Source of the DNA: a bacterium | Lineage (GTDB): Bacteria; Omnitrophota; Gorgyraeia; Zapsychrales; Zapsychraceae | Direction of reading: 5' to 3' | DNA: 64,000 nucleotides | NCBI GenBank assembly: GCA_030429765.1 | Contig: JAUIER010000005.1 | Location: 3,175-67,174 of the forward strand | Part shown: positions 855 to 27,754 of the stretch, one piece after another | How the letters are laid out: every line of letters begins with the position of its first letter | Numbering within the stretch: the stretch's first letter is position 1 | The notes under the pieces: model-generated | Told to the model about the DNA's origin: nothing | The model's input: only the letters and a program-made list of their open reading frames with translations | The model's database searches: none | Program-made: the position numbers and the translations under genes

Positions 855-2312
855 TTATTGATCTCCCGTCACAATCGTCGGCGTCAGAAAGATAACGATC
901 TCTGAAACTCGGTCAAAATTGCGGGTATTACGAAATAGAACGCCCACGACCGGGATGTCGCCGATTACCGGCACCTGGCTGACCGCGTCGATCTGTTCTT
1001 CTTTGATCAAACCGCCAATCACAAGCGTGGTCTGATCTTTGACCATCACCTTGGTCTGGGCCTCGGATGTATCGACCACCGGAATGATATTATTGTTGCT
1101 GGTGACGAGATTACGGACCACTGAACTCACCTCCGGCCGGACGGACATGGTGATAAACCGATCTTTGTGAATGGTGGGTGTGACGTAGAGTTTGACGCCG
1201 ACATCGATAAACTTGACATCTTCGGCCGTGGTAGCCGGACCCGACGCGGTGGTGGTTGTTGTTGTGGTGACATACGGTTCCTGAGATCCAACGAGAATAC
1301 GCGCTTCCTCTCCATCGATTGCGGTTATGCTTGGACTCGATAATATCCGGCTGTCTCCGACGGTTTCCAGGGCCTCCAACAGAAACGAATAATCATCATC
1401 CTGCAACGTACCGATACTGATCGTTCCCTTCTTTTCATTGATCCCCAGAATATCAAAATCACCGCCCAGCGTCAGATTGTGCCGATCCCGGACAATTCCT
1501 TGCCAATCGACACCGAGCTTGTATTCATCATCAAGCGTCACCTGAACGATCTTGGCCTCAATCAAGACCTCCTGCTGCTGCGTATCAAAGGCCTTGATCA
1601 TGCGCTCGATCTCCTGCAGCTTCTGAAACGTGTCCGAGACAATCATACGCTTGGCCTTGCGGTTGAATCGAAGGGTTCCGACACCCGAAGTCAGCACCTG
1701 CTCAATATCCGCCGCCAGCGACTCGATATTGGCATACGACACATCAAACACCCGTGTCTGCAGCGCCACATCAATCTTGTCAATGACCTTAATCATCTGC
1801 TGGATCTTCAGCGGGGTATCGATCAGGATCAACGTCCGTGATTTTTCATCGGGAATGATCTGTCCTACCTCGCTCTTGATCATGGACAGCGTCGATTCCA
1901 GCTTCTTGGGCTCGGCAAAGGCGATATCAACCACCTGCGTCGCCATCACCGTTTCACCAAATTTCCGGCCGTAACGGATCTCATAATCCTTGTCCGTCAT
2001 CACTGTCATCAACCGCTCCGACTTATCGATCACCCATCCGTAGGTCTGAACGATGATATCCAGCGCTTCCAACGGTTCAATGTTCTTGAGATAAATGGAC
2101 ACCTTGCCGCGTACATTCGGTGATTTGACAATATTCACCCCCGACTCATTGGACAGGTATTTGAGGACATCACCGACCTCCATCTCCTTGAGGTCCAATA
2201 CATCAATAGTGACGGGAACGGTATCTACGGCAGAACGTGAACTCTGTGCCCATACCGCGGATGGCAAGAATGTTAGGCAAATCAAAATGATGAGAGGCTT
2301 CAAGGCTGTCAT
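855..2312 (-). CDS. Secretin (type IV pilus PilQ or type II secretion GspD family) with signal peptide. ATG at 2312 preferred over the TTG at 2333 used in the ORF track.
   Basis: Secretin-like C-terminal region (LIEAKIVQV...GGLIKEE...VPVIGDIPVVGVLF...IVIFLTPTIV) and N-terminal secretin_N-like modules. Confidence 0.8.
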   Translation of the reverse strand: MTALKPLIILICLTFLPSAVWAQSSRSAVDTVPVTIDVLDLKEMEVGDVLKYLSNESGVNIVKSPNVRGKVSIYLKNIEPLEALDIIVQTYGWVIDKSERLMTVMTDKDYEIRYGRKFGETVMATQVVDIAFAEPKKLESTLSMIKSEVGQIIPDEKSRTLILIDTPLKIQQMIKVIDKIDVALQTRVFDVSYANIESLAADIEQVLTSGVGTLRFNRKAKRMIVSDTFQKLQEIERMIKAFDTQQQEVLIEAKIVQVTLDDEYKLGVDWQGIVRDRHNLTLGGDFDILGINEKKGTISIGTLQDDDYSFLLEALETVGDSRILSSPSITAIDGEEARILVGSQEPYVTTTTTTTASGPATTAEDVKFIDVGVKLYVTPTIHKDRFITMSVRPEVSSVVRNLVTSNNNIIPVVDTSEAQTKVMVKDQTTLVIGGLIKEEQIDAVSQVPVIGDIPVVGVLFRNTRNFDRVSEIVIFLTPTIVTGDQ

Positions 2313-2339
2313 AACACAATTGAGGTTGTACAAATAAAT

Positions 2340-2930
2340 CTAGAGTTCCAGATCGACGAGTGTTTCGTTAAACTCAAACTGCACCCGGTCGGGATGAATC
2401 GCGAGCACTTTGGCGCCGTGAATCCCGTCGCCGGTCTTCAAAAAAAGCGTTTCATGCGTCGATAAATCTTTGACCACCGCCAGCGACGGCGACTTGATGA
2501 TAATCCCCGACAGCGTAATAAATTGATCTAGCGTCTTGACCGGTTCAGCGACTGCCTCGGACCGGTTAACCCGGCGCGCGTCCAGCTCATCGCGATAGTT
2601 TACAAAGATATTCCGGCGGCGAACCGGCTGTAAATACTCCGACACGTCCCGAACCGGTGATGATGCGACATCGAGTTGAGCGTCCGCGATCGATTGAGCC
2701 CGAATATCAAAATCACTCAATCGCTGCTGTTGCTGAAGGCTCAACCAGACAAACTGCACGCCGACACCGATCAACAGCATCAAAATCATCCAGCGAAGCG
2801 ACAGGTTCACACGCTTCATCCATTGCAGCAAACGGTTCCGTTGCCGCATCTGCTGCTGATCCTTCAGCATTTGATCATGCGAATAGTCCGTCGTGACGGC
2901 AGGAATCGTGATGCGGCTTTTCTGGATCAT
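2340..2930 (-). CDS. Secretin-associated inner-membrane protein (PilP/GspC-like); single TM helix then periplasmic domain. Start moved to internal ATG 2930, which has a GGAGAA RBS.
   Basis: Position immediately upstream of the secretin on the same strand; TM segment WMILMLLIGVGVQFVWLSL; C-terminal beta-rich domain. Weak family assignment. Confidence 0.4.
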   Translation of the reverse strand: MIQKSRITIPAVTTDYSHDQMLKDQQQMRQRNRLLQWMKRVNLSLRWMILMLLIGVGVQFVWLSLQQQQRLSDFDIRAQSIADAQLDVASSPVRDVSEYLQPVRRRNIFVNYRDELDARRVNRSEAVAEPVKTLDQFITLSGIIIKSPSLAVVKDLSTHETLFLKTGDGIHGAKVLAIHPDRVQFEFNETLVDLEL

Positions 2931-3057
2931 AACAGTTCTCCGACCTAGTCTTAGTCTAGAGAAGGTTGACAGACAAATCAACTGATCTTATGTACTTTGG
3001 ATGGACAATCGTTTTGTAAGGCGTTGGGAATGAGAGATTTAAAACAGCGACACTTTT

Positions 3058-5092: not shown

Positions 5093-5671
5093 TTAATATT
5101 CGAATTCTATCATAGGAATTTTTAGTTCCAATTCTTCAAAATCAGGAATGCTTCGTAAAAGATATGTGTTTGAACTGGAAGTAATTATAATATTCTTAGC
5201 TGGTTTCCTTATATTTGTACTGCTAAAAGGCATCCATCCATTGATTTGCTCCTGCTCTCTATGAAGCAAGAAAAGCTGATTCATTTTCTCATACCTCTTA
5301 GTATCAACATGGATACCAAAATTAGGCTTTAATGTTCCACTAATAGTCATAGTATGATGTCCATTTAGTGTTTCATTGATTTTATTGTCTGATCCCTCCA
5401 GACTCGCCAAACTTAATCGCCTCAAAATTATACCGTTGGCCTCTTTGAGACCTCCAATTTCCTTTAGTATATCCGATTGGCCACTACTAAATGCAATTAT
5501 CTGTTTTTCAATATGATCGACCTTACCAACTAAGTTCTTATAGTTTATGTCCAATTCAGTAAACTTGGACACAACATTTCCATACATTATTGTGCATCCA
5601 ACAATACCTCCCATAATAGTAAGTAACAAACTGATAACTACTACAGATGTGTTTATACCATCTAAATTCAT
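5093..5671 (-). CDS. Hypothetical membrane-anchored protein (N-terminal TM helix, AT-rich gene).
   Basis: Long ORF; hydrophobic N-terminus VVVISLLLTIMGGIVGCTIM; no recognisable motif. Confidence 0.4.
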   Translation of the reverse strand: MNLDGINTSVVVISLLLTIMGGIVGCTIMYGNVVSKFTELDINYKNLVGKVDHIEKQIIAFSSGQSDILKEIGGLKEANGIILRRLSLASLEGSDNKINETLNGHHTMTISGTLKPNFGIHVDTKRYEKMNQLFLLHREQEQINGWMPFSSTNIRKPAKNIIITSSSNTYLLRSIPDFEELELKIPMIEFEY

Positions 5672-5858
5672 TGTTTGCCTTTCTGGATTCGCTCAAATAA
5701 GGACACAGTCATCCTTCTGTTAGTTGCAGTTAGATTAGCTTTGCGTACAATATTGGAAACTAGGTTAGTCGATTGCTCATATTTAAGTTGTTTTTCTTCC
5801 CTCCTATTACCATCACGATAAGTCCAGATCGTTTTTAATCGTAATATTCGATCCAATT

Positions 5859-6644
5859 TTATTGATAAAACTGAAATGATGTTAATATACCATTCTCAAA
5901 TCTCAAATATTTTGATTTTCTTGCAGGATCTCCATAAATCCACTGCTCTTGAGCATTATTGGAATATTTTCCTTTTTCAACTTCATCAGCTCGGCCTAAG
6001 CTTCTTGTAACATCTGACCTGGTCATTCCGTATAGAATTTCTCGATTCCTGATCGCTTCTTTAATTTGCTTCTCAAAGCTTCTCTTTTCGCTGTATAAAC
6101 TAGCCTTGTCATCACGTAGAGCAGATATTACAGACTTAATTTTAGTTCGTTGGTCGGAATCTAAATTCTTATCTAGTGCATACTGTAATTGTCTTTCAGC
6201 TTTGTCATAGAATGAAATTGCCTTCTTATATTTAGCAACCGACTTCACTCCTCCAGACAATATGATTTCTGCATCTGTAGTATATTGAAAAGCTTGTTTA
6301 ATTTTCTCTTCCCCCATTAGTTCAGAGGATTGTTTTGAAGATGCTACTTGCCGCATAGGAACTTCAGCTTTTTTTACCTTTACACCTAAACGCTTGATAA
6401 ATTTGCCACTACCCTTGGAGTCAAATTCTACATAATCGGCCCCAATTTCCGTTACGGTAAGCTCGCCTACTCGATCACCCACCCTAACTAGCTCATCATT
6501 AACAACAGCAACATATTCAGTTCCGCTCATAATTCCACTTATATTCAAACTTTCTGCCCAGCAGGCTGATGGAAAGTATCCGACAAAAGCTACTACTAAT
6601 AATATTACTATTTTTTTCACGATTATAGTACGATTAGCCTTCAA
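5859..6644 (-). CDS. Secreted/lipoprotein with C-terminal BamE-like (SmpA/OmlA) domain.
   Basis: Signal peptide; C-terminal GMTRSDVTRSLGRADEVEK...EQWIYG...LRFENGILTSFQ resembles the SmpA/OmlA fold consensus. Confidence 0.45.
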   Translation of the reverse strand: MKANRTIIVKKIVILLVVAFVGYFPSACWAESLNISGIMSGTEYVAVVNDELVRVGDRVGELTVTEIGADYVEFDSKGSGKFIKRLGVKVKKAEVPMRQVASSKQSSELMGEEKIKQAFQYTTDAEIILSGGVKSVAKYKKAISFYDKAERQLQYALDKNLDSDQRTKIKSVISALRDDKASLYSEKRSFEKQIKEAIRNREILYGMTRSDVTRSLGRADEVEKGKYSNNAQEQWIYGDPARKSKYLRFENGILTSFQFYQ

Positions 6645-6858: not shown

Positions 6859-7386
6859 TCATTTATTGTAACTGTCTATACCTAATGCGTTAATATAATG
6901 AACTATTTCATGCCATTGAGCTAGGTTGCAATCACAGTATATTGGTCCGTCCGAAAAGGCCAAGTTTATTATTCGTTTGTATTTAAAAAATTCTATTGTA
7001 TAGTCTTTATCTAATGTAATACTGTCTTTAATAGTTTGAAAATCAACTTCCTTAGACTTTCCGTCAAACTTATTTTTACACACAATTTTTACCCTAGTGA
7101 CTCCATCATTCGATCTATCGAGTTCCGCTTTAGTTTTTACACCTAAATCTTTAACGTATTGAGTTATTTCAAGCCATTCCTCAAAAGTACAATTACAATA
7201 CATTTCTCCATGTGGAATATTTAGGTTTATTATTTTTTCATTCTCATATAACTCTATAGCATAGTTACCCTCAATATATATATTTTTCTTAATGGTATCA
7301 AAGTCAACCTCATTAGAAATTCCATCAAAATTTTTTTTATACACAACTACTAGCACTTTACCTCCCCATACAAACGAAATTATCAA
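6859..7386 (-). CDS. Putative immunity protein of the upstream RHS toxin. It is an internal tandem duplication of ~85-aa modules, each with a conserved C-x-C (CNC/CDC) and W-x-E-I motif.
   Basis: Position 31 bp downstream of the RHS gene on the same strand; two homologous halves (KKNFDGISNEVDFDTIKKNIYIEG...MYCNCTFEEWLEITQYVKDLG versus KNKFDGKSKEVDFQTIKDSITLDK...IYCDCNLAQWHEIVHYINALG). Confidence 0.5.
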   Translation of the reverse strand: MIISFVWGGKVLVVVYKKNFDGISNEVDFDTIKKNIYIEGNYAIELYENEKIINLNIPHGEMYCNCTFEEWLEITQYVKDLGVKTKAELDRSNDGVTRVKIVCKNKFDGKSKEVDFQTIKDSITLDKDYTIEFFKYKRIINLAFSDGPIYCDCNLAQWHEIVHYINALGIDSYNK

Positions 7387-7417
7387 TCAGTTGTCGTAGC
7401 CCGGCAGAAATTGCTAA

Positions 7418-10400
7418 TTATTCTGGAAAAAACGGCCCATCATACCATTCCACTCCCCATCCGGGTGTGTAATGCTCCCACTGTGGCTGTGGCTTAGGAT
7501 GTCTGGGACCAGCCGGAAAGGGAAATTTGGGCTTATATGGCCTCACTCCTGTCCCAGGATTACTGGTTGGTAAATTTAATGCAGTTTGTGCTTCTAACCC
7601 CGGCTTATAAGGAGGCTTAACGCTAGGCCCTGTAAAATATTTAGTCTTGTACCATGGTTGTTCTGCTGGATAGTATTGCCAATATTTTGGCTTTTTCGAA
7701 TCCTGTATCAAGTAAGTAACTCCAGCAACTAATAGTAAAAGAAGAGCAATAGGCAATATTCCACAGCTAGATATAGCTGACCCTGTTCCTGCTGCTCCTG
7801 CTACTGCTGCCGTTTCTGCTACTTGCAAACCTAATGGATCCGTAAAATTAATTGGATTGGATAACACATATTCAAACAAATTCATCGAATCATAGTAGCC
7901 CAACGGATCCCTTTGCAAAAATCGACCTATGTCTGGATCATATGCTCTGGCGCGGTAGTGGTAAATACCGATTTCTGTGTCAAATCGACGTCCAGTAAAA
8001 TAATACGGATTACCTATTGATGACAGCGATGTAGTGATCTTTCCATATGGATCATAATCATAAGTTTCCAGAACTGTCCCCGATGAGTTTGAAATATTAC
8101 GAATACTATTTAAACCGTCAAAATGATAATAGTAGGTTGTGGAACTACGATCCATAGTAAGGACTTCGTCGATCCCTCGCCCCATGACGTAATCTGCTTG
8201 CAGAACATTCGAAGAACTATATTCCTCTATTACTTCCGATCCATCGTAAACAAAATAAGTCGTCGTACCATCAACTGTCTTACTGACTCGCCGATTAAAC
8301 GCATCATATTCGTATGTTGCGGTATGCGATGAGTTTTGCATTTGGATAAGCCTGTTCTGCTCATCATACGTATACGTGTTGGTTCCATCTGATTGAAGGT
8401 TATCATTGGAGTCATACGTGTATGTCTGTGTGCCGACTTGATCGTATTGATTTAGGTTATTTGACGTATAGCTAGCACTATCGGCTGTTGTACGATTACC
8501 CACATTATCATACGCGTAACTATGCGTCTGAGCACCTGTCACACCCGTCAACTCATAAATATCGTTATAAGCATAGGTCTGCGTTGCACCGCCTGTTGTC
8601 ATGGTTAGTCGATTGCTCACGTTATCGTATGTGTAATCGAACGTTGAAACGTTCGTTGACGGCAACACATCATTCTTGAGCTGAAGCAACTGATTGGCGA
8701 TGTCATAATCATAATCTGCCACAGGCAAATTGGTATTGATAAACGACTTCTTCGTTCGTCGATTCAGCGGATCGTAGGTGTAATCGAGCAATCCCGCCGT
8801 ATTAACGTCGATATCCGTCATCCGATTCAGATCATCATACGCGTAATCAACAACCTTACCCGACGGATACGTCAACTTGGTTCGATTGCCGTAGTCATCG
8901 TAATTGAAAGTTAGCGTGTAGTTGTTTGAGTTTAGGGTTTGGGTGGTGGTGGCCACACGGTTTAAGGCATCATATGTGTAACCCACACTACTGGCTGTCG
9001 TATCTGCATCCGTCAACCGCGACCCCACATCATACGTGTATGTAACATCCAGATTGCTATCCGTCGTGTACGTTTTGTCAGTCCGGCGGTTAAGGACGTC
9101 GTAAACATAATCAATCGCGTTCCCGCTTGGCGTCGTATGCTTGGTCAGGTTAGAATTCTTGTCGTACTGATACGTACTTCCACTGGAATCCGCGTAAGTC
9201 TTACTGGTGCGCCGATCAAACCCGTCATACGCGTAATCGGTGGCATTACTTTCCGCATCCGTAATCTTGACCAAATTACCGTTCTTATCGTAATCATATT
9301 GCGTCACACCCTGCGGCGTATTGGCATCTTTATGTTCAAATAACAAGTCCCGTTCATCATAAACATATGTCGTCACATTGGTCTCGGCATCCGTCACCGT
9401 CGCTACATTCTCGCTAAGATCATAGGTATACGTCATTGTCCGGTTCAGCGGGTCCTTCATGGTCAGCACATTATTGAGAATGTCATACGTGTACTCGATG
9501 GTCTGCCACACCGTCACCGGATCATCGGCCTGACGTTCGAGCTTCGTCACATTCCCGTTCTGATCATAGGTGTATTTGGTCTCATAACCCAGATCATTAG
9601 TAGTCTTGATCAACCAGCCTAACTCATTGTAGTCCAGGTCAGTCACATTGGTATTGGCATCAGTGATCGTATCCACATTCCCATACGTATCGTATGTTAA
9701 AGACGTAATCGCGTTAATCCCGGATGGATCGCGGATAACATCCTTAAGATAACCGGTTGTTGCATGGTAGGCAAACTGAGTGATATTCCCGTTGGGATTC
9801 TGTGTTTCCGTGATCTGTCCATAGGCATTATACGTAAAATGGGTCGTCGGCGTCTGACTGTTCACCGTTGGCTGCTCGAGCTTAACCACATTCCCGGCTG
9901 CACCATATTTGGGATCGCTCGTCGGCAGGTCATAATCAAACGTATAGGTGTAGGTATTCCCCTTAGGATCGGTAATCGTACGAACCTGATTGAAATTAGA
10001 CTCATAGATAAAATCCGTCACAATATCATTGGTATTGTTATCAGCCAGCGCCATATCCGCTTTTTGACGGACTTGCAGGACATTGCCGCGGGCACGGCGA
10101 TCGGTATTTGTGATGTCATACACATACTTGACCCCATTTCCTTCCGGATACGTAACCGTCTCCAGCTGACGCTCTGAATTGTAGGTATAACTAGTAATAT
10201 AAGAGGCCGGATCTCCCGTACGAATCCCTTGTGTGAAGACTTCTTTGGATAACAGAGCTGCGTTTCCATCAAAATTGTAGGTCGTGACCATACCGCGCCG
10301 ATCCGTCACCGTTGTGGTATTGACGCCATAGGAAAACAAGTAATATCCAGAACCCAAATCCTGCCGCTCGACACGTCCTTCGGAGTCATACGTATTTGTC

Positions 10401-11509
10401 AGAAACACCTGACTCTTGGCATCGGTAATTGTCAGCATGTTATGACTGGTATCATAGGTAAAACTCTTGGTTAATCCCGCCGGATACTGAGCTGACGTTG
10501 GTTTGGTGATACTTAGTAGATGCGCGGAATTGGCATCGTAGGTGAAGGTGATCGTTCGTCCGGCATAGTCCACTATCGAACTTAGTTTTCCATCCGAATT
10601 ATAATTGAGATCAATTTCCCGTCCGACCGTATCAATAATCTTAGTTAGCTGGTAGTCATACCCGACAACAACAGGCGTTAAAGACTTACTAAAATCTGAA
10701 TGCGCGTGAATAGGAATAGCACCACTCGGATTATATTGGAAGGTTATCTGATTTCCGTGGCGGTCCACTATCGCCGTTAATTTACCATCAATATCAAATT
10801 CATATTTGGTTCCATTGGGTCGGGTCATGCTCCACGATCCATCGACATTTTGTACCAATGTTCTGAATACCCCAGCTGGAGCTTCATAAACTCCGGCATT
10901 ATAGGTAAATTCATCCTGCCGGCCATTCTCTGAAATTACAATTGCGTTACCATTACTCATCGGACGGACACGGTAGTAATAACTCATCGTCCACCCATAG
11001 CCAAACTGACCGTTGTAATTTTTGCCGCTACGGTATAAGTGATTAATAGCGACATTGAGGCCTCGCCCGGGAATATATAGGTCTGTGCAATAATAGTAGA
11101 ACTCACCACTGTGCAGGTATACTGGGTCAGCACCCGTTTCAGAACCTTCTCCTGGCTTTGGTGTGTTCTCGGAAGGATTCCGCGCTTCAAAACAACCTCC
11201 GCCAAGTGTAGGCATACCATTTGGATTTTGCTTTGGTTGTGGTTTCTGTGAAGAGTCTTCTGTCTCCGGGACCGGCTGCTTATCGCCATTGGGAAGTGCA
11301 CCTCCACCATCGCCACCCGGTGGCTGGCCTTGTTGCGCTTGATCATTTACCGGGGCAGGCGCTGGAAGCGAATCTCCAAAATCTACACCACCAACCCCAT
11401 CCCAAGGATTGACATGAAGAGCCATGGCCGAATATGGAACAATACAGCTCCAGGCAAACGTTAGCAATGTGATAAAGGCAATCGACTGAAGTTTTTTGAA
11501 TATTTTCAT
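7418..11509 (-). CDS. RHS/YD-repeat polymorphic toxin with Sec signal peptide, RHS-associated core ending in DPLGL, and a ~135-aa C-terminal tip of unknown type (hydrophobic helix plus Pro/Tyr/Lys-rich tail).
   Basis: Numerous YD repeats (YTYDxxNRxT, FxYDxxGN), RHS core motif GRRFDTEIGIYHYRARAYDPDIGRFLQRDPLGYYDSMNLFEYVLSNPINFTDPLGL, then ILPIALLLLLVAGVTYLI and a PKYWQYYPAEQPWYK...PKPQPQWEHY tail. Confidence 0.9.
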   Translation of the reverse strand: MKIFKKLQSIAFITLLTFAWSCIVPYSAMALHVNPWDGVGGVDFGDSLPAPAPVNDQAQQGQPPGGDGGGALPNGDKQPVPETEDSSQKPQPKQNPNGMPTLGGGCFEARNPSENTPKPGEGSETGADPVYLHSGEFYYYCTDLYIPGRGLNVAINHLYRSGKNYNGQFGYGWTMSYYYRVRPMSNGNAIVISENGRQDEFTYNAGVYEAPAGVFRTLVQNVDGSWSMTRPNGTKYEFDIDGKLTAIVDRHGNQITFQYNPSGAIPIHAHSDFSKSLTPVVVGYDYQLTKIIDTVGREIDLNYNSDGKLSSIVDYAGRTITFTYDANSAHLLSITKPTSAQYPAGLTKSFTYDTSHNMLTITDAKSQVFLTNTYDSEGRVERQDLGSGYYLFSYGVNTTTVTDRRGMVTTYNFDGNAALLSKEVFTQGIRTGDPASYITSYTYNSERQLETVTYPEGNGVKYVYDITNTDRRARGNVLQVRQKADMALADNNTNDIVTDFIYESNFNQVRTITDPKGNTYTYTFDYDLPTSDPKYGAAGNVVKLEQPTVNSQTPTTHFTYNAYGQITETQNPNGNITQFAYHATTGYLKDVIRDPSGINAITSLTYDTYGNVDTITDANTNVTDLDYNELGWLIKTTNDLGYETKYTYDQNGNVTKLERQADDPVTVWQTIEYTYDILNNVLTMKDPLNRTMTYTYDLSENVATVTDAETNVTTYVYDERDLLFEHKDANTPQGVTQYDYDKNGNLVKITDAESNATDYAYDGFDRRTSKTYADSSGSTYQYDKNSNLTKHTTPSGNAIDYVYDVLNRRTDKTYTTDSNLDVTYTYDVGSRLTDADTTASSVGYTYDALNRVATTTQTLNSNNYTLTFNYDDYGNRTKLTYPSGKVVDYAYDDLNRMTDIDVNTAGLLDYTYDPLNRRTKKSFINTNLPVADYDYDIANQLLQLKNDVLPSTNVSTFDYTYDNVSNRLTMTTGGATQTYAYNDIYELTGVTGAQTHSYAYDNVGNRTTADSASYTSNNLNQYDQVGTQTYTYDSNDNLQSDGTNTYTYDEQNRLIQMQNSSHTATYEYDAFNRRVSKTVDGTTTYFVYDGSEVIEEYSSSNVLQADYVMGRGIDEVLTMDRSSTTYYYHFDGLNSIRNISNSSGTVLETYDYDPYGKITTSLSSIGNPYYFTGRRFDTEIGIYHYRARAYDPDIGRFLQRDPLGYYDSMNLFEYVLSNPINFTDPLGLQVAETAAVAGAAGTGSAISSCGILPIALLLLLVAGVTYLIQDSKKPKYWQYYPAEQPWYKTKYFTGPSVKPPYKPGLEAQTALNLPTSNPGTGVRPYKPKFPFPAGPRHPKPQPQWEHYTPGWGVEWYDGPFFPE

Positions 11510-11541: not shown

Positions 11542-12249
11542 TCATTTTACGAAAAAAGGAATACTAACCGTTCCGATTTCGCCCTCATATCCAACGACAT
11601 TCACTGTCAGTGTATGCCGTCCTTTCGATAATCCTTTGGCGTTAAGTTCGTAGTTAAATGGATTGACTCCCTGCTCATCTTCCATCAAAAATGTATTGTC
11701 GAGGTACATACCAATCTCAAACTGGCTTTCGTTAAGCCATTTGATATCCCGAGCATCAATCATGATCCTCACAGGTACATCCGTATTTCCGCTAATTTGA
11801 GCCATGCCGTTGTCCATGTCGGCGTCCGGAAATTCAACTTCAAAGCGGGGAACTTTACGATACCCCCGGATGGGTGAATCGTAACTCTGTCGCTTATTCT
11901 CATCCGTAGGTAGACAGGCAATGATCAACATATAATCCGGTCGTTTCCCAAAACTCACAAGTCCGCTTGAATCTGTGAAGTCCCACTGTTCGGTATGTGA
12001 CCCTGCCTTTCGAGGCTCCCAATCCAGCAGATTTCGAAGCAGTGGACCTCCTTTGGCTATGCCGATTCGAAGCCGTACAAGCGCGTCTTCCGGCAGGCTA
12101 TACTTTATTTCCCCTGTTTGCGAATCGAAAGAGACATCCGTTGGCACAATTTCAGGATACTGATACCCGCTTTCTGCTGGATATGCTGTTGATCCGCAGA
12201 CGCCAAGAAAGAGACAAAGGAAAAAACTAGAAAGAACGCTGAGTTTCAT
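11542..12249 (-). CDS. Secreted hypothetical protein (signal peptide; beta-rich, Ig-like C-terminal region).
   Basis: ORF with N-terminal signal MKLSVLSSFFLCLFLGVCGSTAYPAES; tightly packed in the operon. Confidence 0.45.
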   Translation of the reverse strand: MKLSVLSSFFLCLFLGVCGSTAYPAESGYQYPEIVPTDVSFDSQTGEIKYSLPEDALVRLRIGIAKGGPLLRNLLDWEPRKAGSHTEQWDFTDSSGLVSFGKRPDYMLIIACLPTDENKRQSYDSPIRGYRKVPRFEVEFPDADMDNGMAQISGNTDVPVRIMIDARDIKWLNESQFEIGMYLDNTFLMEDEQGVNPFNYELNAKGLSKGRHTLTVNVVGYEGEIGTVSIPFFVK

Positions 12250-12258
12250 ATAGTTGCT

Positions 12259-12774
12259 TTAATCAATGACTTCGATCGATTGAATCTGTGAAGCCAAGAC
12301 CTGATTATTTTGGTCGATAACTTCAATCCTGACTTCATACGTACCTGGTTGCTGTCCTTTAAAATTTTGTTTAAATGCAAAAGGAAGAAATGACTCTTTA
12401 TAGCGTTCAATCTGACGACCGTTCAAATAATACGCGATATCATATGGCCCCTCGGTCACATTGGTGCCAGCTATTAGATCAATCCTGAATTCGTGGATAT
12501 TCTTAACTTGAGTCCCTTTGTTGTCCCTGCCAAACTTTCGTTTGCTGAAGACCACATCTGCTTGACGCATTTTCGTTCGTCGTACGTTCTCCAGCACGAC
12601 CTTAGCATTACGAGCTTTCTGTTCTTCGGCCCGCGTAAAGGCTTGAATAGAATTTTCACCCGGCGGCGTGGCGCCTGCCAGAGAAACGCTCACCAAACTA
12701 ATAGCCATGGGTAGGATTAGGCTTGGAATATATCTATTCTTCAGATACGTCATATTATTTTTCTCCTGCTGCAC
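12259..12774 (-). CDS. Secreted hypothetical protein.
   Basis: Signal peptide LILPMAISLVSVSLAGA; overlaps the upstream TolB-like gene by 20 nt, so probably co-transcribed. Confidence 0.45.
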   Translation of the reverse strand: MQQEKNNMTYLKNRYIPSLILPMAISLVSVSLAGATPPGENSIQAFTRAEEQKARNAKVVLENVRRTKMRQADVVFSKRKFGRDNKGTQVKNIHEFRIDLIAGTNVTEGPYDIAYYLNGRQIERYKESFLPFAFKQNFKGQQPGTYEVRIEVIDQNNQVLASQIQSIEVID

Positions 12775-13630
12775 ACCATCTGGGCTCTATCGCCTCTGAC
12801 GTTCCGTCAGTCAGCTGTTTGACATTGGAACCGTCTAAATCCATTAGCCATAGTTGCTGAACGCCTGATCGGGTTGAGGTGAAAACCACTCTTTGACTGT
12901 CCGCCGCTACATCAGGCGTAGTATCCAAATCTTCGTTATTTGTTATCGATTTAACCTTTTTTGATTCGACATTCACTACGTATATCTCGTAATCCTGACC
13001 ATCACGATTGGAGGCAAAGATTATATTCGCACCGTCCGGTGTAAAGCGTGGATGGACGTCCAGTCCGTCGGCCTTCGTGATCTGTACTCGCTCCTTACTT
13101 TCCGGACTGATTGTCCAAATATTGTGTTCCAATTGTCCGTCCGCGCTGACAAACGCGACTTGATCACATGTCGGACTAAAACTTGGGTGATACTTCAAAT
13201 ACTTGTCCTGTGTGACCATCCGGGTCTCATCTCCAGTCATGTCCGAAACCCAAATATCGCTAATGTCAATTTCTCTGGGATTAAACCGTACAAACAATAA
13301 CTTCTGAATACCGTCGCAATAGTCCGGACTATTAATCGAATTGTATCGGCTCAACAACTCTGTTTCTTGACCATTCTCCAGACTGTATTGATATAATTTC
13401 CCGTTATTACTTCGATACACAACTTGCTGAGTTGAATCAATACAGACCGGACTGCGCTTATCGCGCTTACTGGTTGTCAATTGAGTAGGCTCACTCCCAT
13501 CTTCATTAATCATCCAGATCTGCCAGTAACCATCCGTCAGCCGGGAGTATACGACCTGTTCCTGAGCCGAGGCTGTCACGGGGCTGGACAGTAGTCCTAT
13601 CAATACTATGAAAAAGATCGTTCTTGGCAT
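12755..13630 (-). CDS. TolB-like periplasmic beta-propeller (PD40/WD40-like repeats) protein.
   Basis: Signal peptide then repeated DGS/DG...Q.T... blades (INEDGSEPTQLT, FTPDGANIIFASNRDGQDYEIYVVNV, LMDLDGSNVKQLTDG) typical of TolB-type propellers. Confidence 0.6.
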   Translation of the reverse strand: MPRTIFFIVLIGLLSSPVTASAQEQVVYSRLTDGYWQIWMINEDGSEPTQLTTSKRDKRSPVCIDSTQQVVYRSNNGKLYQYSLENGQETELLSRYNSINSPDYCDGIQKLLFVRFNPREIDISDIWVSDMTGDETRMVTQDKYLKYHPSFSPTCDQVAFVSADGQLEHNIWTISPESKERVQITKADGLDVHPRFTPDGANIIFASNRDGQDYEIYVVNVESKKVKSITNNEDLDTTPDVAADSQRVVFTSTRSGVQQLWLMDLDGSNVKQLTDGTSEAIEPRWCAAGEK

Positions 13631-16600
13631 CTACTCAAATACGGTAATGTTTCCGTCAATCACCTGGGTTGTCGAGTCTTTTGTCACGGATAATCTGATT
13701 TTGTAATGCCCTTCGGTATCTACAAACTTACCTAAATCATTCAAGCCATCCCACTCTACCGTATGGCTTCCGATATTAGTGAACACATTATTAACTAAGG
13801 TCGCCACCGTCTGATCCTGGGTATCAACAATGGTTAGGGTAACGTTCCCCGATTCGGATATAGTATATTCAATCTCCGTCGATTGACCGTAGACCGGATA
13901 TATAACATAGGGGTCGGCCTGAATAGTTGATGTAGTTAGGCCTGGATGATTGTCAACAATAATCGCATTGTCGGGCAAAATCTTAGACCATGCCAATACC
14001 GTATGGTCGTCTGCCACAGGCATATCTCCATCATCCGTACGACCGTCCCAAATAACAGTATTACCGGTCGTATCACTCGGAAGATACTCCACGAGGCGTC
14101 GATCCATGTAATGCTCGCCATGCCGGCCTACCCAGAGAATCACCCAGGACGGAACGCTGACGTCATAAGAAACAGTGACCGTTTCACCTTGATATGGATT
14201 GAATGTCGCCGGTGTGACACTCATATTCGAGAAAGTCGCCGTACCGGAGACATATTCGGGATCATAGGTGAAATTCATTGTAGAATCGACTGCGTCAATT
14301 GTATATACATATGCCGAGTCATCCAAATCAGTATTAGTGGAATCTTTTCCATTCCATACAAAGGTATTGGCTCCGGCTGTCCGGGCTGAATTTAGCAACA
14401 GTGTATCTTCATACACCCGGTAATATTTGCCATTCGAGATGTACACATCTCCTTTGTATATTTTGATCGTCACATCCGCGTCCCGATCCAGCGTAAAATT
14501 GATAGTTGATGTCTGTCCACTGCCAGGATCGATGGAAGTGTCTGTGTGCGAAACATTGGTTATCAAATCATTTGGATAAGCCTGCCCCCAAATTCGAGCA
14601 TCAGTAACCATATGATTGAAATAATAGATACTGCTGTCTACGAACAAAGAATTGGAACTGGCCACCGTGCTTGTATAAAATACCATTTCATTTTTGAGAT
14701 ACGTGATCGTCGTTCCAGTGCGCTCAATTTTAATCTTATCACCGGCCTGATACGGACCAAAATCTCCCCTGGAGACACCACTTTCATAAACTTCAAGCGT
14801 TTGGTTGTCTGTGACATATATTCCATAATCGATGGTTTCCCAGCTGTTATTAGTATTGGTGTCCGATAGACCGACAATATAGGCCTTATCGATATTTGTC
14901 ATCTCGAAATCAAGTGCAAAATCTCCGGTAAATATTCCGGTTGATATGGCACCGGCATTTCCCCATCCTGCTCCGATATTCTTTTGTAAGTCATTTCCAT
15001 AAGCAACTCCTCCAACAATATCTCGCCATACGACATCCGAATTAATGTCCGGCTTGGCACTCACGACGTTTGACGCTCCACCGGAGCCAATCGCATTCTT
15101 GGTGACAACTCTAAATTGATAAGACGTACCATTAGATAAACCTGTAATCGTTGCACCGGTCACAGCGTCATCTGCGTATGTTGAGCCAAAAGTCCCACTG
15201 GCCACCGTGCCGTATTCTACATCATACCCCGTAATAACTGAGCCTCCGTTGGAAGGTGCGGACCAATACAAACTAGCACTTGAGTCATCAGCTTGCACAT
15301 ATAGATCATTCACAGCCCCAGGAACGGTCGGGACAACGCCTAAAAATTTAGCATCCTGTATGGTTGCTCCATAGTCATAAAATGCTGTATCTACGAGCAA
15401 AACTCCTGCACTTGGTACAGAACTGCGGTAAAAAACAACACCGTTTTTATGATAGGATATTTCCGAACCATTCCGTACTATCTGAAATTTATCACCCGTC
15501 TGATACGTACTTAAATTACCTCTATCAGTCCCCCCTTCGTAAACATGTACCACACCACCTGGAATCAGGTCTATGGCATAGTCAATTGTAGTATAATTGG
15601 CATCTACATTGACATCTGAAAACCCGCACAAACGATAAGTTGTTGTTTCATTGGCTGTAAATTCTATTCCGAAATCCCCTTCAAAAGATGACGTTGAAGC
15701 CCCGCCAGCAGCACCCCATCCTCCCCCCATAGAGGTCTTAGCCAAATCGTTTCCCGTGGCGCCAACTCCGACAAAATCGGTCCATACAACATCGATTGGC
15801 ACTCGAGGTGTAATTGTAAGAATGTTGGATGCCTGGCCGCTCCCGTTGGCATTCTTGGCTACAATTCTAAACTGATAAGAGGCCCCTGTTGTGAGTCCCG
15901 TGACTGTCGCGCCAGGTACAGCGTCATCCGTATAGGTGGAAGCAAAAGTTCCGCTACTGACTAAACCATACTGAACCTCATACTCCGTTATTGGGGAACC
16001 ATTGCTGGCAGGTGCGGACCAATCCAAGTCGATACTGGTACCTTGGGAAATCCCAATCAAATCAGATACAGCGTCTGGTGCCGACGTCGAAATTCCAAAA
16101 AACTGTGCGTTCGTAATCGTTGATCCGTTCCAGTTCAATGCAGCATCGACAAGCAATGCTCCGGAACTTGGCGTAGCACTTGTGTAGAAAGTGACACCGT
16201 TCTTTTTGTACAGAATACTGGTCCCCATGCGTTCAACCGCAAAAATATCTCCCGATTGATACGTTCCAAAGGCCCCCTTATAGCTCCCGTTTTCATAAAC
16301 CTGAACACCAGCGCTCGAGGTCAAATAAAGAGCATAGTCAATAGACGTATAGTTGGCATTCACGTTGACATCGGACAAACCGCACATTCGGTGCTTATTG
16401 GTTTCAGTTGCCTCAAATTGAACACCGAAATTACCGGTCTGCGTAGAGTCCGAAGCCGCACCTGCAACACCCCATGTACCCCCGACATTCTGGGTGATGG
16501 TGTTGCCTGTTGCTGTAACGCCAACCAAATCCGTCCATACGACATCAACCAGGGCACTTGGCGTGACAAGGACAACATTTGACGCTGGTCCCGTACCAAT

Positions 16601-17404
16601 CGAATTTTTGGCCACAACCCTGAACTGATACTCTGTACCAGTCGTCAAACCTGTAATTGTGGCACCCGGGCTGGCATCGTCCGTATAAGTTGAACCAAAC
16701 GTACCGCTGGTGACAGTCCCGTACTGAACCTCGTACTCAGTTATGGCTGAGCCTCCATCCGACGGTGCCGACCATGACAATATGGCGGTGGTCGTTGTAA
16801 AATCCGATGACAAATCATTGATTGCACCGGGCGCTTGAGCAGGAACACCTGTAAATTTTGCATCGAGAATACTGCGATTGGTGTAGTAAAAACTGGTATC
16901 TGCCAATAAATCGCCAGTGCTAGAGATGGTGCTTGTATAAAATGTAGTTCCGTTTTTCTTATACGTAATCGTTGTCCCTGTTCTTTCTACCTTAAATACA
17001 TCCGAGAGACTAAACGATCCGAAACTTCCTCTCAAAGTGCCACTTTCATACACCTCGACTGTCGCTGAATTAGAGAAATAAATGGCATAATCAATGGTAT
17101 CCCAGTCCGCATCTGCGTTTGTACTGGAGAGACCACACAGAGTGTTATTGTAGGAAAGTGTATTTGTGGAAAATTCTAAACCGAAATCTCCGCTATGTTT
17201 ATCCGTAGAGGCCGCTCCTCCATTGTTCCAACCATTTCCAGCGGTTTTGGTGAGATCATTCCCGCTGGCGGACACACCCACCAGATCCGTCCAGACGACA
17301 TCAACATCTGCCGCATAGACGCAAGGAACCATGATTATTAAAAACATCCAAATTATAGAGATTTTAAGTAAATGGGTGAGAATCGGGAGTTTTTTTCTGC
17401 GCAT
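13631..17404 (-). CDS. Large secreted or cell-surface repeat protein: four tandem ~250-aa units, each an unknown ~170-aa beta domain (VDVVWTDLVGV...) followed by a fibronectin type III domain, then C-terminal Ig-like (FlgD-Ig-like) domains.
   Basis: FN3 consensus (ITEYEVQYG...YTDDA.PGAT.TGLT.G..YQFRVVAKN..G.G.ASN) repeated four times; signal peptide; 1257 aa. Confidence 0.7.
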   Translation of the reverse strand: MRRKKLPILTHLLKISIIWMFLIIMVPCVYAADVDVVWTDLVGVSASGNDLTKTAGNGWNNGGAASTDKHSGDFGLEFSTNTLSYNNTLCGLSSTNADADWDTIDYAIYFSNSATVEVYESGTLRGSFGSFSLSDVFKVERTGTTITYKKNGTTFYTSTISSTGDLLADTSFYYTNRSILDAKFTGVPAQAPGAINDLSSDFTTTTAILSWSAPSDGGSAITEYEVQYGTVTSGTFGSTYTDDASPGATITGLTTGTEYQFRVVAKNSIGTGPASNVVLVTPSALVDVVWTDLVGVTATGNTITQNVGGTWGVAGAASDSTQTGNFGVQFEATETNKHRMCGLSDVNVNANYTSIDYALYLTSSAGVQVYENGSYKGAFGTYQSGDIFAVERMGTSILYKKNGVTFYTSATPSSGALLVDAALNWNGSTITNAQFFGISTSAPDAVSDLIGISQGTSIDLDWSAPASNGSPITEYEVQYGLVSSGTFASTYTDDAVPGATVTGLTTGASYQFRIVAKNANGSGQASNILTITPRVPIDVVWTDFVGVGATGNDLAKTSMGGGWGAAGGASTSSFEGDFGIEFTANETTTYRLCGFSDVNVDANYTTIDYAIDLIPGGVVHVYEGGTDRGNLSTYQTGDKFQIVRNGSEISYHKNGVVFYRSSVPSAGVLLVDTAFYDYGATIQDAKFLGVVPTVPGAVNDLYVQADDSSASLYWSAPSNGGSVITGYDVEYGTVASGTFGSTYADDAVTGATITGLSNGTSYQFRVVTKNAIGSGGASNVVSAKPDINSDVVWRDIVGGVAYGNDLQKNIGAGWGNAGAISTGIFTGDFALDFEMTNIDKAYIVGLSDTNTNNSWETIDYGIYVTDNQTLEVYESGVSRGDFGPYQAGDKIKIERTGTTITYLKNEMVFYTSTVASSNSLFVDSSIYYFNHMVTDARIWGQAYPNDLITNVSHTDTSIDPGSGQTSTINFTLDRDADVTIKIYKGDVYISNGKYYRVYEDTLLLNSARTAGANTFVWNGKDSTNTDLDDSAYVYTIDAVDSTMNFTYDPEYVSGTATFSNMSVTPATFNPYQGETVTVSYDVSVPSWVILWVGRHGEHYMDRRLVEYLPSDTTGNTVIWDGRTDDGDMPVADDHTVLAWSKILPDNAIIVDNHPGLTTSTIQADPYVIYPVYGQSTEIEYTISESGNVTLTIVDTQDQTVATLVNNVFTNIGSHTVEWDGLNDLGKFVDTEGHYKIRLSVTKDSTTQVIDGNITVFE
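14300..17311. repeat. Intragenic tandem repeat, four copies with ~756-bp period, encoding the repeated modules of the surface protein.
   Basis: Protein-level repeats starting near residues 32, 285, 537 and 785 with high similarity imply DNA-level tandem repeats. Coordinates approximate. Confidence 0.6.
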
Positions 17405-19505: not shown

Positions 19506-19582
19506 TTTTTAAATTGACTTAATTGCCGCAGCATTCTAAAATAAGGTATCAAACTTAAAACTACCGCATGGAGGCCTCCAAT

Positions 19583-20311
19583 ATGTCACCTAGCCATCGT
19601 AGCAATGCAACTTTTCACAACCATTTCGAATTTCTGGAGCTTTTTCTTATAAACCAAATGTTGGAATTATTTTCATTCCTGAGTATGCCCTATTTAAGAC
19701 TTAAACCCCTAGTTGACTTTTTTGCAGCTGCGGCAGGATTAATCCTTTTTTCACCCTTTTTGTTAACGGTAATTCTGCTCGTATGGATCACCTCGCGAGG
19801 CCCAGTCCTATATTCTCAAACCCGGGTCGGAAAAAATGGAAAACACTTCATAATTTATAAATTTCGAACAATGCATATCGACGCGGAGAAAGAAAGCGGC
19901 CCCATTTGGGCAAGCAAGAATGATACTCGTGTAACATCAATAGGCAAGTTCCTTCGAAAATCACATATTGATGAACTTCCACAGCTTATCAACGTATTGA
20001 AAGGCGAAATGAGCATCGTTGGTCCAAGACCGGAGCGTCCAATTTTTGTTGAAAAATTCATACAGTCAGTCCCTAACTATAACGAACGCTTATCGGGGAT
20101 GCCTGGAATCCCAGGATTAGCACAAGTACGACATAGTGGTGATGAGTCCATAGAAGATGTTGTTAGAAAATTGTCGTTCGATTTAGACTACCTTAGAAAC
20201 ATTAGATTTTCTAATGATCTTAAAATTTTCTTCCAAACGATTTATGTTGTATTGCGTGGCGTGAAACTAGGAGATCAACCTGTTATAAATATACCAGTTA
20301 CTGCCGATTAA
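19583..20311 (+). CDS. Polyprenyl-phosphate glycosyl-1-phosphate transferase (bacterial sugar transferase, WbaP/EpsB C-terminal domain family), the EPS/glycan priming enzyme.
   Basis: Motifs KRLVDFF.A...L..SP, YSQTRVGKNGKHFIIYKFRTM, DELPQLINVLKGEMSIVGPRPERP; start chosen at ATG 19583 with a GGAGG RBS. Confidence 0.8.
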   Translation: MSPSHRSNATFHNHFEFLELFLINQMLELFSFLSMPYLRLKPLVDFFAAAAGLILFSPFLLTVILLVWITSRGPVLYSQTRVGKNGKHFIIYKFRTMHIDAEKESGPIWASKNDTRVTSIGKFLRKSHIDELPQLINVLKGEMSIVGPRPERPIFVEKFIQSVPNYNERLSGMPGIPGLAQVRHSGDESIEDVVRKLSFDLDYLRNIRFSNDLKIFFQTIYVVLRGVKLGDQPVINIPVTAD

Positions 20312-20377
20312 GTGGACCATCTAGCGATATATCATTTTAAACTCCATGCATGTTAACCTCATTAACAAGGAGAAAAT

Positions 20378-21550
20378 ATGAAAACTTTAATTGAGAAAGC
20401 ATTAACCATTTGCCGCCTGTTTGACTCTTTGATCCAGCATGTACTCATTGGTTTTTTACTAATCCTCATTCTCAACGCGTCTAATGCTTCTGCGTTTCTT
20501 ATAGAAAGAGATTATCAAACTTTAGGAGACAATCTCTTTACTCTTGATACCCAAACCGGCCTTCTATGGCTAGATGTGCCAGTTACCAGTCCCCAAAGTA
20601 AAGATAGCATTCTGGACTTTATTGCCGAAGAAGACTTTTTTTGGGGAATTCGAGACTTAAATTCCTCTGGACAAATAATTAGTGAAGTTGAAATGTTGAT
20701 GCAACATGCTGGTATAGTTAATACTTTTGGTGTACCTACGGCAGCTAACGATGCGGGCGTACTAAAATTGTTAGCATTAATGGGAGAGACTACTGTTGGC
20801 GAGCAATATGGCATATTTCATAATGTTTTAGGACCAACTAATACGTCGTCTTCAAAATTGGTGTATAGTCCAGGAGCCTCCGAAGCGCATGGCATTTTTG
20901 ACAGCCTGGTACATACAAGTGATGGAAGAAATGATCGTGGACAGTATCTCAGACGCATAGCAGATCCAAACTCTTACGAATCTCTTTCTAATGGCAATAA
21001 TTCCAGCTCTCTGCTTGGAGGAACTTCTAGTACAGGAGGTGTAACTGTAACGTTTGATACAAACGACGACGGGGTTTTTCTTGCCGAGTACAACTTGGAA
21101 AATCAATCAGAGTTCCTAAAACATATCTTTGACAATCAGGTGGAGAATCTGAACTTCGCAATTCCAGGTGAGAATATTCAATGGTGGGACCTTGATTATA
21201 AGAGTGATTTCGGACTTGCTGACCCAAATTTTGGAACAGCTCTAGTTCAGTTAAAATATGACGATTCAGAGTTGGGTCAATTATTTAACGAAAGTGATTT
21301 GCAAGTATTTCATTTTAGGCAAGGGGCATGGGAATTGGTGGCAACTACAGTGGATACCGATGCAAATATCGTCTCCTTTTCTACAAATAGTTTTTCTCCA
21401 TTTGCTTTAGGAATGTCCTCTAGTGTAATTCCTGAACCAACTACGATACTGTTGTTTGGAGGAGGTTTGCTTGGGTCAATTTTAAAGCGGAAAATTAGAT
21501 TTTCGGGAGTATCGTCTATTCCCTCTACTACGACCGACTTTAGGATTTGA
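20378..21550 (+). CDS. PEP-CTERM sorting-signal protein (secreted, exosortase-substrate-like), with an extra 15-aa tail after the basic cluster.
   Basis: C-terminus VIPEPTTILLFGGGLLGSILKRKIRF = PEP motif + TM helix + Arg/Lys cluster; N-terminal signal; AAGGAG RBS. Confidence 0.7.
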   Translation: MKTLIEKALTICRLFDSLIQHVLIGFLLILILNASNASAFLIERDYQTLGDNLFTLDTQTGLLWLDVPVTSPQSKDSILDFIAEEDFFWGIRDLNSSGQIISEVEMLMQHAGIVNTFGVPTAANDAGVLKLLALMGETTVGEQYGIFHNVLGPTNTSSSKLVYSPGASEAHGIFDSLVHTSDGRNDRGQYLRRIADPNSYESLSNGNNSSSLLGGTSSTGGVTVTFDTNDDGVFLAEYNLENQSEFLKHIFDNQVENLNFAIPGENIQWWDLDYKSDFGLADPNFGTALVQLKYDDSELGQLFNESDLQVFHFRQGAWELVATTVDTDANIVSFSTNSFSPFALGMSSSVIPEPTTILLFGGGLLGSILKRKIRFSGVSSIPSTTTDFRI

Positions 21551-23143: not shown

Positions 23144-23148
23144 TCTGA

Positions 23149-23343
23149 CTACCTCGATTGCTTTCTGATAAAACCAAGAACTTCCTCTGGATCAAATCGC
23201 AAATACTTGCCAACCTTATAGTGTGGAATACCATCCTGCCCTTGTGCCGTACGTTCGTACAGCCACCATTTAGTTACATTAAGTATTTGGGCCATCTCTT
23301 CAACATTGACCAAATTTGGTAATTTTTCGTTGGATAATTTCAA
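23149..23343 (-). CDS. xis: Excisionase/AlpA-like helix-turn-helix DNA-binding protein.
   Basis: 64 aa; VEEMAQILNVTKWWLYERTAQGQ..IPHYKVGKYLRFDPEEV matches the excisionase-family HTH pattern; located just upstream of int. Confidence 0.7.
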   Translation of the reverse strand: MKLSNEKLPNLVNVEEMAQILNVTKWWLYERTAQGQDGIPHYKVGKYLRFDPEEVLGFIRKQSR

Positions 23344-23498
23344 TATTATCGCCTTTCCTTAGATTCGTACACGCTTATTTAATTCACCCTATATCGTCGA
23401 CATTGACTGATTTTTTTCATTATTTCCCTTGTTTTCAACCCCTCTATATACTGCATTCTCTGTCGCAAATAACATTAAGTATATTTGTCAATGTCGTC

Positions 23499-25718: not shown

Positions 25719-25921
25719 TATTTAATCCCCTCCATTTCAATTGCTAAAAAATACTTTGTTTTATACGTCCCTTTGTTGTTACTAATAACAGTTAAGATAT
25801 ATCGTTTTCCCTCTTCGTCTAGCTGTACTATCTCCCAGCGTACAATTGGCCTAATTTTGCTTAGCTTCTTAAGCGACCATTCAAGTTTTTCGTAAAAACT
25901 TTCCTTCTTTGAATTCATCAA
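25718..25921 (-). CDS. Small hypothetical protein translationally coupled to the primase (stop/start overlap).
   Basis: 67-aa ORF ending at the primase start codon. Confidence 0.35.
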   Translation of the reverse strand: MMNSKKESFYEKLEWSLKKLSKIRPIVRWEIVQLDEEGKRYILTVISNNKGTYKTKYFLAIEMEGIK

Positions 25922-27753: not shown

Positions 27754-27754
27754 T

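Follow-up and report, generated by a model that had tools for sequence, protein, structure and literature searches.

A putative Sec-exported RHS polymorphic toxin whose C-terminal tail and tandemly duplicated immunity candidate belong to uncatalogued families

We analysed a stretch of bacterial DNA of 64,000 nucleotides (nt) from contig JAUIER010000005.1, which is hereafter called the window and whose own positions are used throughout. Two open reading frames (ORFs), oriented in the same direction on the minus strand, fill its region 6859-11509: a gene for a large RHS protein and, immediately downstream, a gene for a small protein. In our judgement the large gene probably encodes an RHS polymorphic toxin exported through Sec and the small gene the immunity protein that belongs to it, the toxin and the immunity domain both coming from uncatalogued families.

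The RHS gene (7418..11509, minus strand) is an ORF of 1363 amino acids (aa) plus stop, the same as the NCBI protein P0002. In this protein Pfam recognised only two domains, namely RHS_repeat (PF05593, E-value 5.1e-64, in 13 stretches) and DUF6531 (PF20148, E-value 7.7e-14; aa 128-201, 10907..11128, minus strand), and NCBIfam recognised YD_repeat (TIGR01643, E-value 2.8e-39) and the Rhs-associated core (TIGR03696, E-value 3.7e-23; aa 1152-1228, 7826..8056, minus strand). The core ends with DPLGY-x18-DPLGL and its last five residues, at aa 1224-1228, are the DPLGL that the original prediction had read there; by analogy with RHS and TcC proteins, this end is presumed to be the autoproteolysis site. 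The N-terminus looks like a Sec signal: aa 1-30 (11420..11509, minus strand), read by eye and by hydropathy, consist of MKIFKK, a hydrophobic core and SAMA|LH, and the AxA|xH of the cleavage region is kept in the RHS relatives P0003-P0005. An RHS toxin with a signal peptide had been proposed for this locus, and the repeats, DUF6531, the core and this leader agree with the proposal. The leader as such has precedents, export through a signal peptide and Sec being the commonest export mode of polymorphic toxins (Zhang et al. 2012, PMC3482391). At the level of sequence the locus product is an RHS polymorphic toxin, as all the defining features that can be read at this level are present.

Pfam was run on 36 ORFs of the window, which included the RHS protein and most of the large ORFs. 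Among them there was no match to type VI secretion system families (T6SS; PAAR, VgrG, Hcp and Tss), as expected from the original prediction, and no match to the Tc-toxin domains SpvB, TcdB_mid/TcB and TcA.

The sequence after DPLGL is the variable C-terminal tip (aa 1229-1363, 135 aa; 7421..7825, minus strand). It begins with an Ala/Gly-rich stretch, continues with a hydrophobic helix that resembles a transmembrane (TM) segment (GILPIALLLLLVAGVTYLI, aa 1250-1268; 7706..7762, minus strand) and with the residues QDSKKPK, and ends with a tail of 93 aa (aa 1271-1363; 7421..7699, minus strand), which is documented by two alignments (A4 and A6) and a hidden Markov model (HMM). The tail contains 20 Pro, 19 Tyr/Trp/Phe and 12 Lys/Arg in its 93 aa, with an isoelectric point (pI) of 9.6, and includes the basic, Pro/aromatic-rich stretch RPYKPKFPFPAGPRHPKPQPQ; its motifs are YWQYYP, PYxxG, ALNLPxxNPGTxVR, GPRxPxP and GxGxE.

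This tail is found in 12 other RHS tips from 10 further loci, always at the extreme C-terminus and behind the RHS DPxG motif, on RHS backbones that are 24-46% identical to that of the window. The tail HMM matched L001, L004, L007 (two copies), L010, L014-L019 and L025 with E-values from 1e-27 to 1e-50. In the alignment A6 (12 sequences, 97 columns, almost gapless), identity to the window tail is 35-52% and 13 columns are invariant, precisely P30, G34, A37, A40, N42, L43, P44, N47, T50, V52, P65, G80 and E84 in the tail numbering; N1312, N1317, T1320 and E1354 are invariant residues in the numbering of the protein. E1354 is the sole invariant acidic residue of the tail, and R1323 is kept in 10 of the 12 sequences. 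A pI between 9.5 and 11.2 was obtained for 11 of 13 tails. The original prediction had described a low-complexity tail rich in Pro, Tyr, Lys and Trp: the composition was right, whereas the near-gapless alignment with 11 other RHS C-termini contradicts low complexity. We consider the tail a conserved, real domain and not low-complexity filler, as judged by this alignment.

The same domain was met from the side of the small gene and from the DNA. The best hit of the family of the small protein, P0122, lies on a contig of 547 nt, in which the upstream ORF ends with …ARQALNLPPHNPGTAVRR…AGPRVPKSQPDWGYDTPGTGQEYYRGQNFPD, homologous to the …AQTALNLPTSNPGTGVRP…AGPRHPKPQPQWEHYTPGWGVEWYDGPFFPE of the window. 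In addition, a degenerate DNA pattern was written for YWQYYP and NLPxxNP (TGGCARTAYTAYCC-N78-99-AAYYTNCC-N7-AAYCC), a pattern that should not turn up in the window by chance (expected number 0). It picked out the window tail and 7 of the 10 loci examined until then (L004-L010, which together hold the known tail-bearing RHS genes), and in two huge collections it matched 8 metagenome loci and 1 genome locus, where it hit tail-bearing RHS genes only. A locus search of genome contigs with a three-sequence alignment gave no confirmed locus.

None of the 12 tails matched Pfam at E-values up to 10, none of six full tips matched it at E-values up to 1, and the tail profile had no match to PDB sequences at E-values up to 10. 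NCBIfam matched the core of the RHS protein and not its tip, a typical tail compared by tblastn with plasmid and phage collections had no match, and a literature search on the motif YWQYYP returned no papers. A word-index protein search with the 135-aa tip also returned nothing; this search missed P0002 itself, which is in the database, and its negative result therefore carries no weight for composition-biased sequences like this one.

The downstream ORF extends up to a TTG at 7386 and, if counted from this codon, the gap to the RHS gene is the 31 bp that had been described. Nevertheless, GTG 7356 appears the likelier start: a Shine-Dalgarno-like GGGGAGG (7361..7367, minus strand), read from the sequence, lies 4 nt ahead of it, and it is also the start used in an independent gene call on an identical contig. 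The resulting protein has 165 aa (6859..7356, minus strand) and matches the NCBI protein P0001 and the Logan protein P0149. The locus L024 is 100% identical to the window over 9218 nt and comes from the same organism, so it was not counted as an independent strain.

The two homologous halves that had been seen in this protein were confirmed, with 41% identity and an alignment score of 175 against 28±5 for shuffled sequences. To score them we used an HMM of the family built without the window sequences. Copy 1 (LNIPHGEMYCNCTFEEWLEI; 7108..7356, minus strand) is canonical, with 98.5 bits, and copy 2 (LAFSDGPIYCDCNLAQWHEI; 6862..7107, minus strand) is diverged, with 58.3 bits, and has lost the NIPxGE motif. 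As for the C-x-C and W-x-E-I motifs reported for each half, both are present in both halves of the window protein; C-x-C is not a feature of the family, in which the first Cys is usually His. Conceivably, the two C-x-C motifs of the window protein make up one metal site. The tandem architecture had been called unusual for an immunity protein, and this is overstated, since polyimmunity proteins, with several immunity domains per polypeptide (for example tandem SUKH repeats), have already been described (Zhang et al. 2012, PMC3482391).

An AlphaFold2 (AF2) model of copy 1, built from 26 sequences, has a mean pLDDT of 90.7 and a β-α-β-β-β-α-α layout, and its comparison by Foldseek with the PDB gave no hit with an E-value of 0.001 or less. 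In the full-length model, confidence is low for copy 2, to which no homologue was aligned, and for how the two domains are placed relative to each other. The window protein has neither a signal peptide nor a TM segment. Two candidate likenesses were put aside. Over its full length, the sequence of copy 1 weakly resembles coronavirus Nsp15 in the N-terminal domain of the latter (VV-K-xFDG…EV…I…ELFEN…N, profile E-value 0.003), which is probably due to chance and was not recovered by Foldseek against the PDB; a match to PDC-M02A of PADLOC (E-value 0.004) was rejected, as among 26 family members a single one showed it.

An exhaustive profile search with both halves in 1.84 billion representatives gave 28 hits, three of which (P0126, P0134 and P0142) are spurious, being repetitive proteins. 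The other hits besides the window protein are single-domain proteins of 73-156 aa; of the about 25 representatives, none but the window protein is duplicated. The core motif of the family is LNIP(F/H)GE-Y-x-C-xx-EW-x-E, with only the second Cys and the Trp being near-invariant. No member of the family has a signal peptide. In several homologues a TM anchor is present at the N- or the C-terminus, and the residues beside the domain are rich in Lys/Arg; according to the positive-inside rule, this arrangement locates the domain in the cytoplasm. The 26 family members gave only scattered matches to Pfam and PADLOC, in one or two members each and with E-values of at least 0.003, and NCBIfam had no match to the downstream protein.

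The profile searches of tip and immunity candidate that had been suggested as a check have thus found no catalogued family for either. As far as Pfam-A (2025), NCBIfam 20, PADLOC 2.0 and the PDB sequences can tell, the tail and the immunity domain are new families, and both are rare, with about 13 tail modules and about 25 cluster representatives of the immunity domain in very large collections.

The pairing of the two families is the central evidence for their roles. In nearly every case the gene next to the tail encodes a member of this one small α/β family. An immunity-family gene directly follows the tail in 9 independent modules (window, L001, L004-6/L011, L007a, L007b, L010, L014, L019 and L025/26), with a spacing of 0-60 nt or with an overlap. 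Contigs of other members of the immunity family hold full RHS genes (with DUF6531 and RHS repeats) that end in the tail, and the small gene either lies 13 nt downstream of them or overlaps them. The locus L007 contains a full-length RHS gene followed by two orphan modules of tail and immunity gene and by further RHS fragments, a layout that, by analogy, is that of a classical polymorphic-toxin locus. The RHS protein of the window shares 24-25% identity with those of L004 and L010, and the tails share 38-44%. This is the signature of a toxin-immunity pair whose tail and small protein travel together, and in these gene arrangements the downstream ORF of the window behaves as the cognate immunity gene; the immunity role that had been suggested for it is supported by the 9 modules, and its conservation independently of RHS genes, which would have spoken against that role, was looked for and is essentially not observed. 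L015 and L018 end too soon after the tail for the downstream gene to be judged.

On the side of L007, we noted that L007, L008, L009, L012 and L013 are one metagenomic RHS locus with two orphan modules (for example L007:7279-8330 and 9762-11203), and that in L007b a C-terminal membrane region of several helices is joined to the immunity domain.

Relatives of the RHS protein carry tips unrelated to that of the window (P0003, 77% identical; P0004, 64%; P0005, 60%; and a further relative at 48%), and the tail domain is in none of the 120 RHS relatives listed. In the 64%, 60% and 48% relatives the upstream cassette is kept, while the downstream small genes differ. As the close relatives have other tips and other downstream genes, the polymorphism expected by the original prediction is present: unrelated tips were found at 77%, 64% and 60% identity and unrelated downstream genes at 64% and 60%.

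One of these relatives deserves a separate description. In P0004 (L022:10001-15185) the tip consists of a hydrophobic helix and a Pro/Trp-rich tail outside the tail family of the window, and the gene is followed by that for a 127-aa multi-TM protein and then by an orphan RHS tip with an HWD-type motif. By its sequence, this may be a tip that truly targets membranes, from the RHS clade to which the window protein belongs.

The helix of the window tip is as strongly hydrophobic as had been claimed: its Kyte-Doolittle mean over 19 residues is 2.51, the top value among 98 related RHS tips, 15 of which have a TM-like segment (mean of at least 1.6) early in the tip. It is not conserved among the other carriers of the tail domain, which have at most weakly or moderately hydrophobic stretches in its place; most of them have, before the tail, a conserved module of about 100 aa (SLLP…FGTGxGxEAxDYW…LWTPETW). 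The helix therefore belongs to an exchangeable part ahead of the toxin domain.

These observations can be arranged in the following mechanism. The RHS shell would enclose the 135-aa tip and, as in RHS and TcC proteins, would cut itself after DPLGL, at L1228; once the protein has been exported and has met a target cell, the tip would be released. The part of the tip ahead of the tail would be an exchangeable membrane-entry part, made up here of the TM-like helix and Lys-rich residues and in most relatives of the module of about 100 aa, and it would put the tail at the cytoplasmic side of the inner membrane of the target, where the tail would poison a target in the cytoplasm or in the inner leaflet. 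The producer would be protected by its cytosolic immunity protein, which would bind the tail 1:1 and block it; copy 1 would be the canonical neutraliser, and copy 2 a diverged duplicate that could either widen the range of neutralised toxins or mimic a homodimer. The absence of signal peptides from the immunity proteins makes the cytoplasmic side the probable place of the toxin's action; this place, the help of the preceding part in getting there and the neutralisation by binding are deduced from where the immunity proteins lie and from the charge pattern around the helix. With its basic pI, the tail would suit a polyanionic target, for example nucleic acid, the ribosome or a lipid leaflet that is anionic. 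For catalysis, no residues other than E1354 and R1323 come into question, and stoichiometric binding is equally possible.

Several points weigh against this interpretation. The entry role of the TM-like helix is a conjecture, and the absent signal peptides together with the positive-inside rule are the sole basis for placing its action in the cytoplasm. No catalytic motif can be recognised in the tail. Moreover, unrelated ORFs follow the tail in L016 and L017, and in L002 the gene that precedes the immunity homologue P0123 is not an RHS gene.

The original prediction had left the choice between a membrane-inserting and a novel toxin. Novelty stands, as neither domain matches a known family, and the membrane-inserting part fares less well. 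In that alternative, the TM helix would enter the inner membrane of the target, and the tail, being aromatic and rich in Lys, would abolish the proton-motive force by disturbing the bilayer or by forming a channel. The exceptional hydrophobicity of the helix agrees with it, as do the basic character of the tail with its abundance of Trp and Tyr, the membrane anchors of several immunity homologues and of the L007b immunity protein, and the example of P0004, whose tip and following multi-TM protein suggest that membrane-targeting tips may exist in the clade. However, the part that is conserved and linked to immunity is the hydrophilic tail and not the helix, which is missing in other members, and the P0004 tip is not in the tail family. 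Against pore-forming colicins and pore-formers of the T6SS, cells are protected by immunity proteins that are integral to the membrane or periplasmic, and that of the window is of a soluble, cytosolic type. We consider a pore-forming toxin unlikely.

It is very unlikely, in our opinion, that the tail is not a toxin at all but serves as a C-terminal module for anchoring, adhesion or sorting, with the small protein as its cytosolic chaperone or export adaptor. The tail does lack a catalytic signature and a match to any toxin family, and its Pro/aromatic-rich composition resembles that of linkers or binding modules, but its position behind the DPxGL cleavage motif is that of the cargo in RHS proteins. 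Furthermore, tail and small gene persist without the shell as orphan modules in L007, they swap between unrelated RHS backbones, and in close relatives tip and downstream gene are replaced together. As to sorting, models of PEP-CTERM and of other sorting signals had no match in the RHS protein, and the hydrophobic helix ends 95 aa ahead of the C-terminus, unlike in sorting signals. Finally, the tail family and the duplication could be a chance resemblance among low-complexity sequences, a probability that we regard as negligible. The high content of Pro, Gly and aromatic residues would favour such a resemblance, and the empty word-index search might be read in the same sense were it not for its failure on P0002; against it stand the 13 invariant columns of a near-gapless alignment, the exclusive matching of tail-bearing RHS genes by the two-motif DNA pattern and the score of the two immunity halves far above that of the shuffled sequences. 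The Sec-exported toxin with a cognate immunity protein is thus the reading that we keep.

Upstream of the RHS gene, a cassette of four genes (11542..17404, minus strand; Pfam) encodes a 1257-aa protein with FN3 and FlgD_ig, a PD40 β-propeller, a protein of 171 aa and an Ig-like one of 235 aa. Each of the four begins with a sequence that looks by eye like a signal, and their starts are adjacent or overlapping. The order (giant FN3/FlgD_ig protein, PD40/Tricorn-like β-propeller, a protein of about 130-170 aa, one of about 240 aa, then the RHS gene and then a variable small gene) is kept in four loci, L020, L022/L023 and L028 among them, with an RHS identity to the window of 48-64%; the cassette partners in L020 and L022 are 34-53% identical to those of the window. 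The cassette may be a dedicated machinery for the delivery or assembly of Sec-dependent RHS toxins in this lineage. The named RHS relatives are metagenome-assembled genomes of Candidatus Omnitrophota, which is the probable lineage of the host.

Downstream of the RHS-immunity pair, the intervals 855..2981 and 5093..6644 (minus strand) encode a secretin (PF00263), a protein similar to the C component of the type II secretion system (T2SS), a weakly GspC-like protein of 261 aa and a protein of 192 aa. In L020 none of these genes follows the related RHS gene, so that their linkage to the toxin is uncertain. By the RHS cassette, at 19568..21550 on the plus strand, there are a Bac_transf sugar transferase and a PEP-CTERM protein (20378..21550), which together indicate an exosortase-type sorting system in this genome. 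Farther away, 21938..32423 is a probable integrated element that adjoins a tRNA-Met (32347..32423) and contains a phage-type integrase (21938..23143), a D5_N/DUF5906 primase-helicase (23499..25718) and four more ORFs without a Pfam match (including ones of 1019 aa and 419 aa). At 34367..37816 (plus strand) lies a gene for an FtsH-like protein of 1149 aa with three AAA modules, that is, a tripled ATPase, followed by Peptidase_M41.

The system is otherwise ordinary, in that it follows the standard logic of RHS toxins and their immunity proteins, and a specialist may see in it another toxin-immunity pair of undefined function, yet one with an unusual composition and a clean genomic signature. It adds to the repertoire of polymorphic toxins a toxin domain and an immunity domain that are in none of Pfam, NCBIfam, PADLOC and the PDB sequences, and the genomic pairing in 9 modules is clean enough to justify direct testing. 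Given a domain of 93 aa that is about 20% proline, basic and with a single invariant acidic residue, the target of the toxin could be new. The accessory cassette might show how diderm bacteria export and deliver Sec-dependent RHS toxins, a matter that is poorly understood. Members of Omnitrophota have been proposed to be predatory in a paper (bioRxiv 10.1101/2023.11.21.568195) that mentions neither the cassette nor RHS toxins in the phylum.

With the Rhs effectors of the T6SS (PAAR-Rhs proteins, for example RhsA and RhsP) and with the TcB-TcC cocoons, the window protein shares the RHS cocoon, the C-terminal DPxGL autoproteolysis motif, an enclosed cargo and DUF6531 on the N-terminal side of the repeats. 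It differs from them in its Sec leader and in the absence, among the 36 scanned ORFs, of the PAAR, VgrG, Hcp, Tss, SpvB, TcA and TcB partners; by this domain content it is neither a T6SS Rhs effector nor a Tc toxin. Like the polyimmunity proteins (PMC3482391), the immunity protein of the window consists of copies of one immunity domain fused in tandem, but the domain family is new, there are two copies only, and the gene lies directly after the toxin and not in a polyimmunity locus.

In contact-dependent growth inhibition (CDI), the CdiA-CT tips are bipartite, with an exchangeable N-terminal part for entry into the cytoplasm and a C-terminal toxin, as known from the CDI literature. The tail family is similar in having a conserved C-terminal domain preceded by a part that differs between members, to which an entry function may be assigned by analogy; the scaffold is an RHS protein here and a filament of the type V secretion system there. 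The likeness to proline-rich antimicrobial peptides (oncocin, Bac7 and apidaecin) concerns only the composition of the stretch RPYKPKFPFPAGPRHPKPQPQ and the putative cytoplasmic target, with no homology claimed, and the tail differs from them in being a 93-aa domain with conserved non-Pro motifs. A bolder proposal, to which we assign little probability, is that the tail is a new kind of RHS cargo, small, basic, non-enzymatic and Pro/aromatic-rich, which would kill by binding some machine of the cytoplasm, such as the ribosome or a chaperone, stoichiometrically, as these peptides do, and which in Omnitrophota-like bacteria would be delivered not by a T6SS or TcA but by a Sec-dependent RHS cocoon with a dedicated, conserved apparatus of FN3 protein, PD40 propeller and two small proteins.

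Among the closest known systems are the Sec-dependent RHS/YD toxins, such as WapA of Bacillus subtilis (the 'T2SS/Sec' class, PMC3482391). Shared with them are the signal peptide, the YD/RHS shell, the core ending in DPxGL, the variable toxin end, the immunity gene directly downstream and the orphan modules in related loci. The system of the window differs in three respects: its host is apparently diderm, as the window encodes a lipid A acyltransferase and Lnt; its toxin and immunity domains are in no catalogued family; and its RHS gene is accompanied by a cassette of four genes whose products have N-terminal signal-like sequences.

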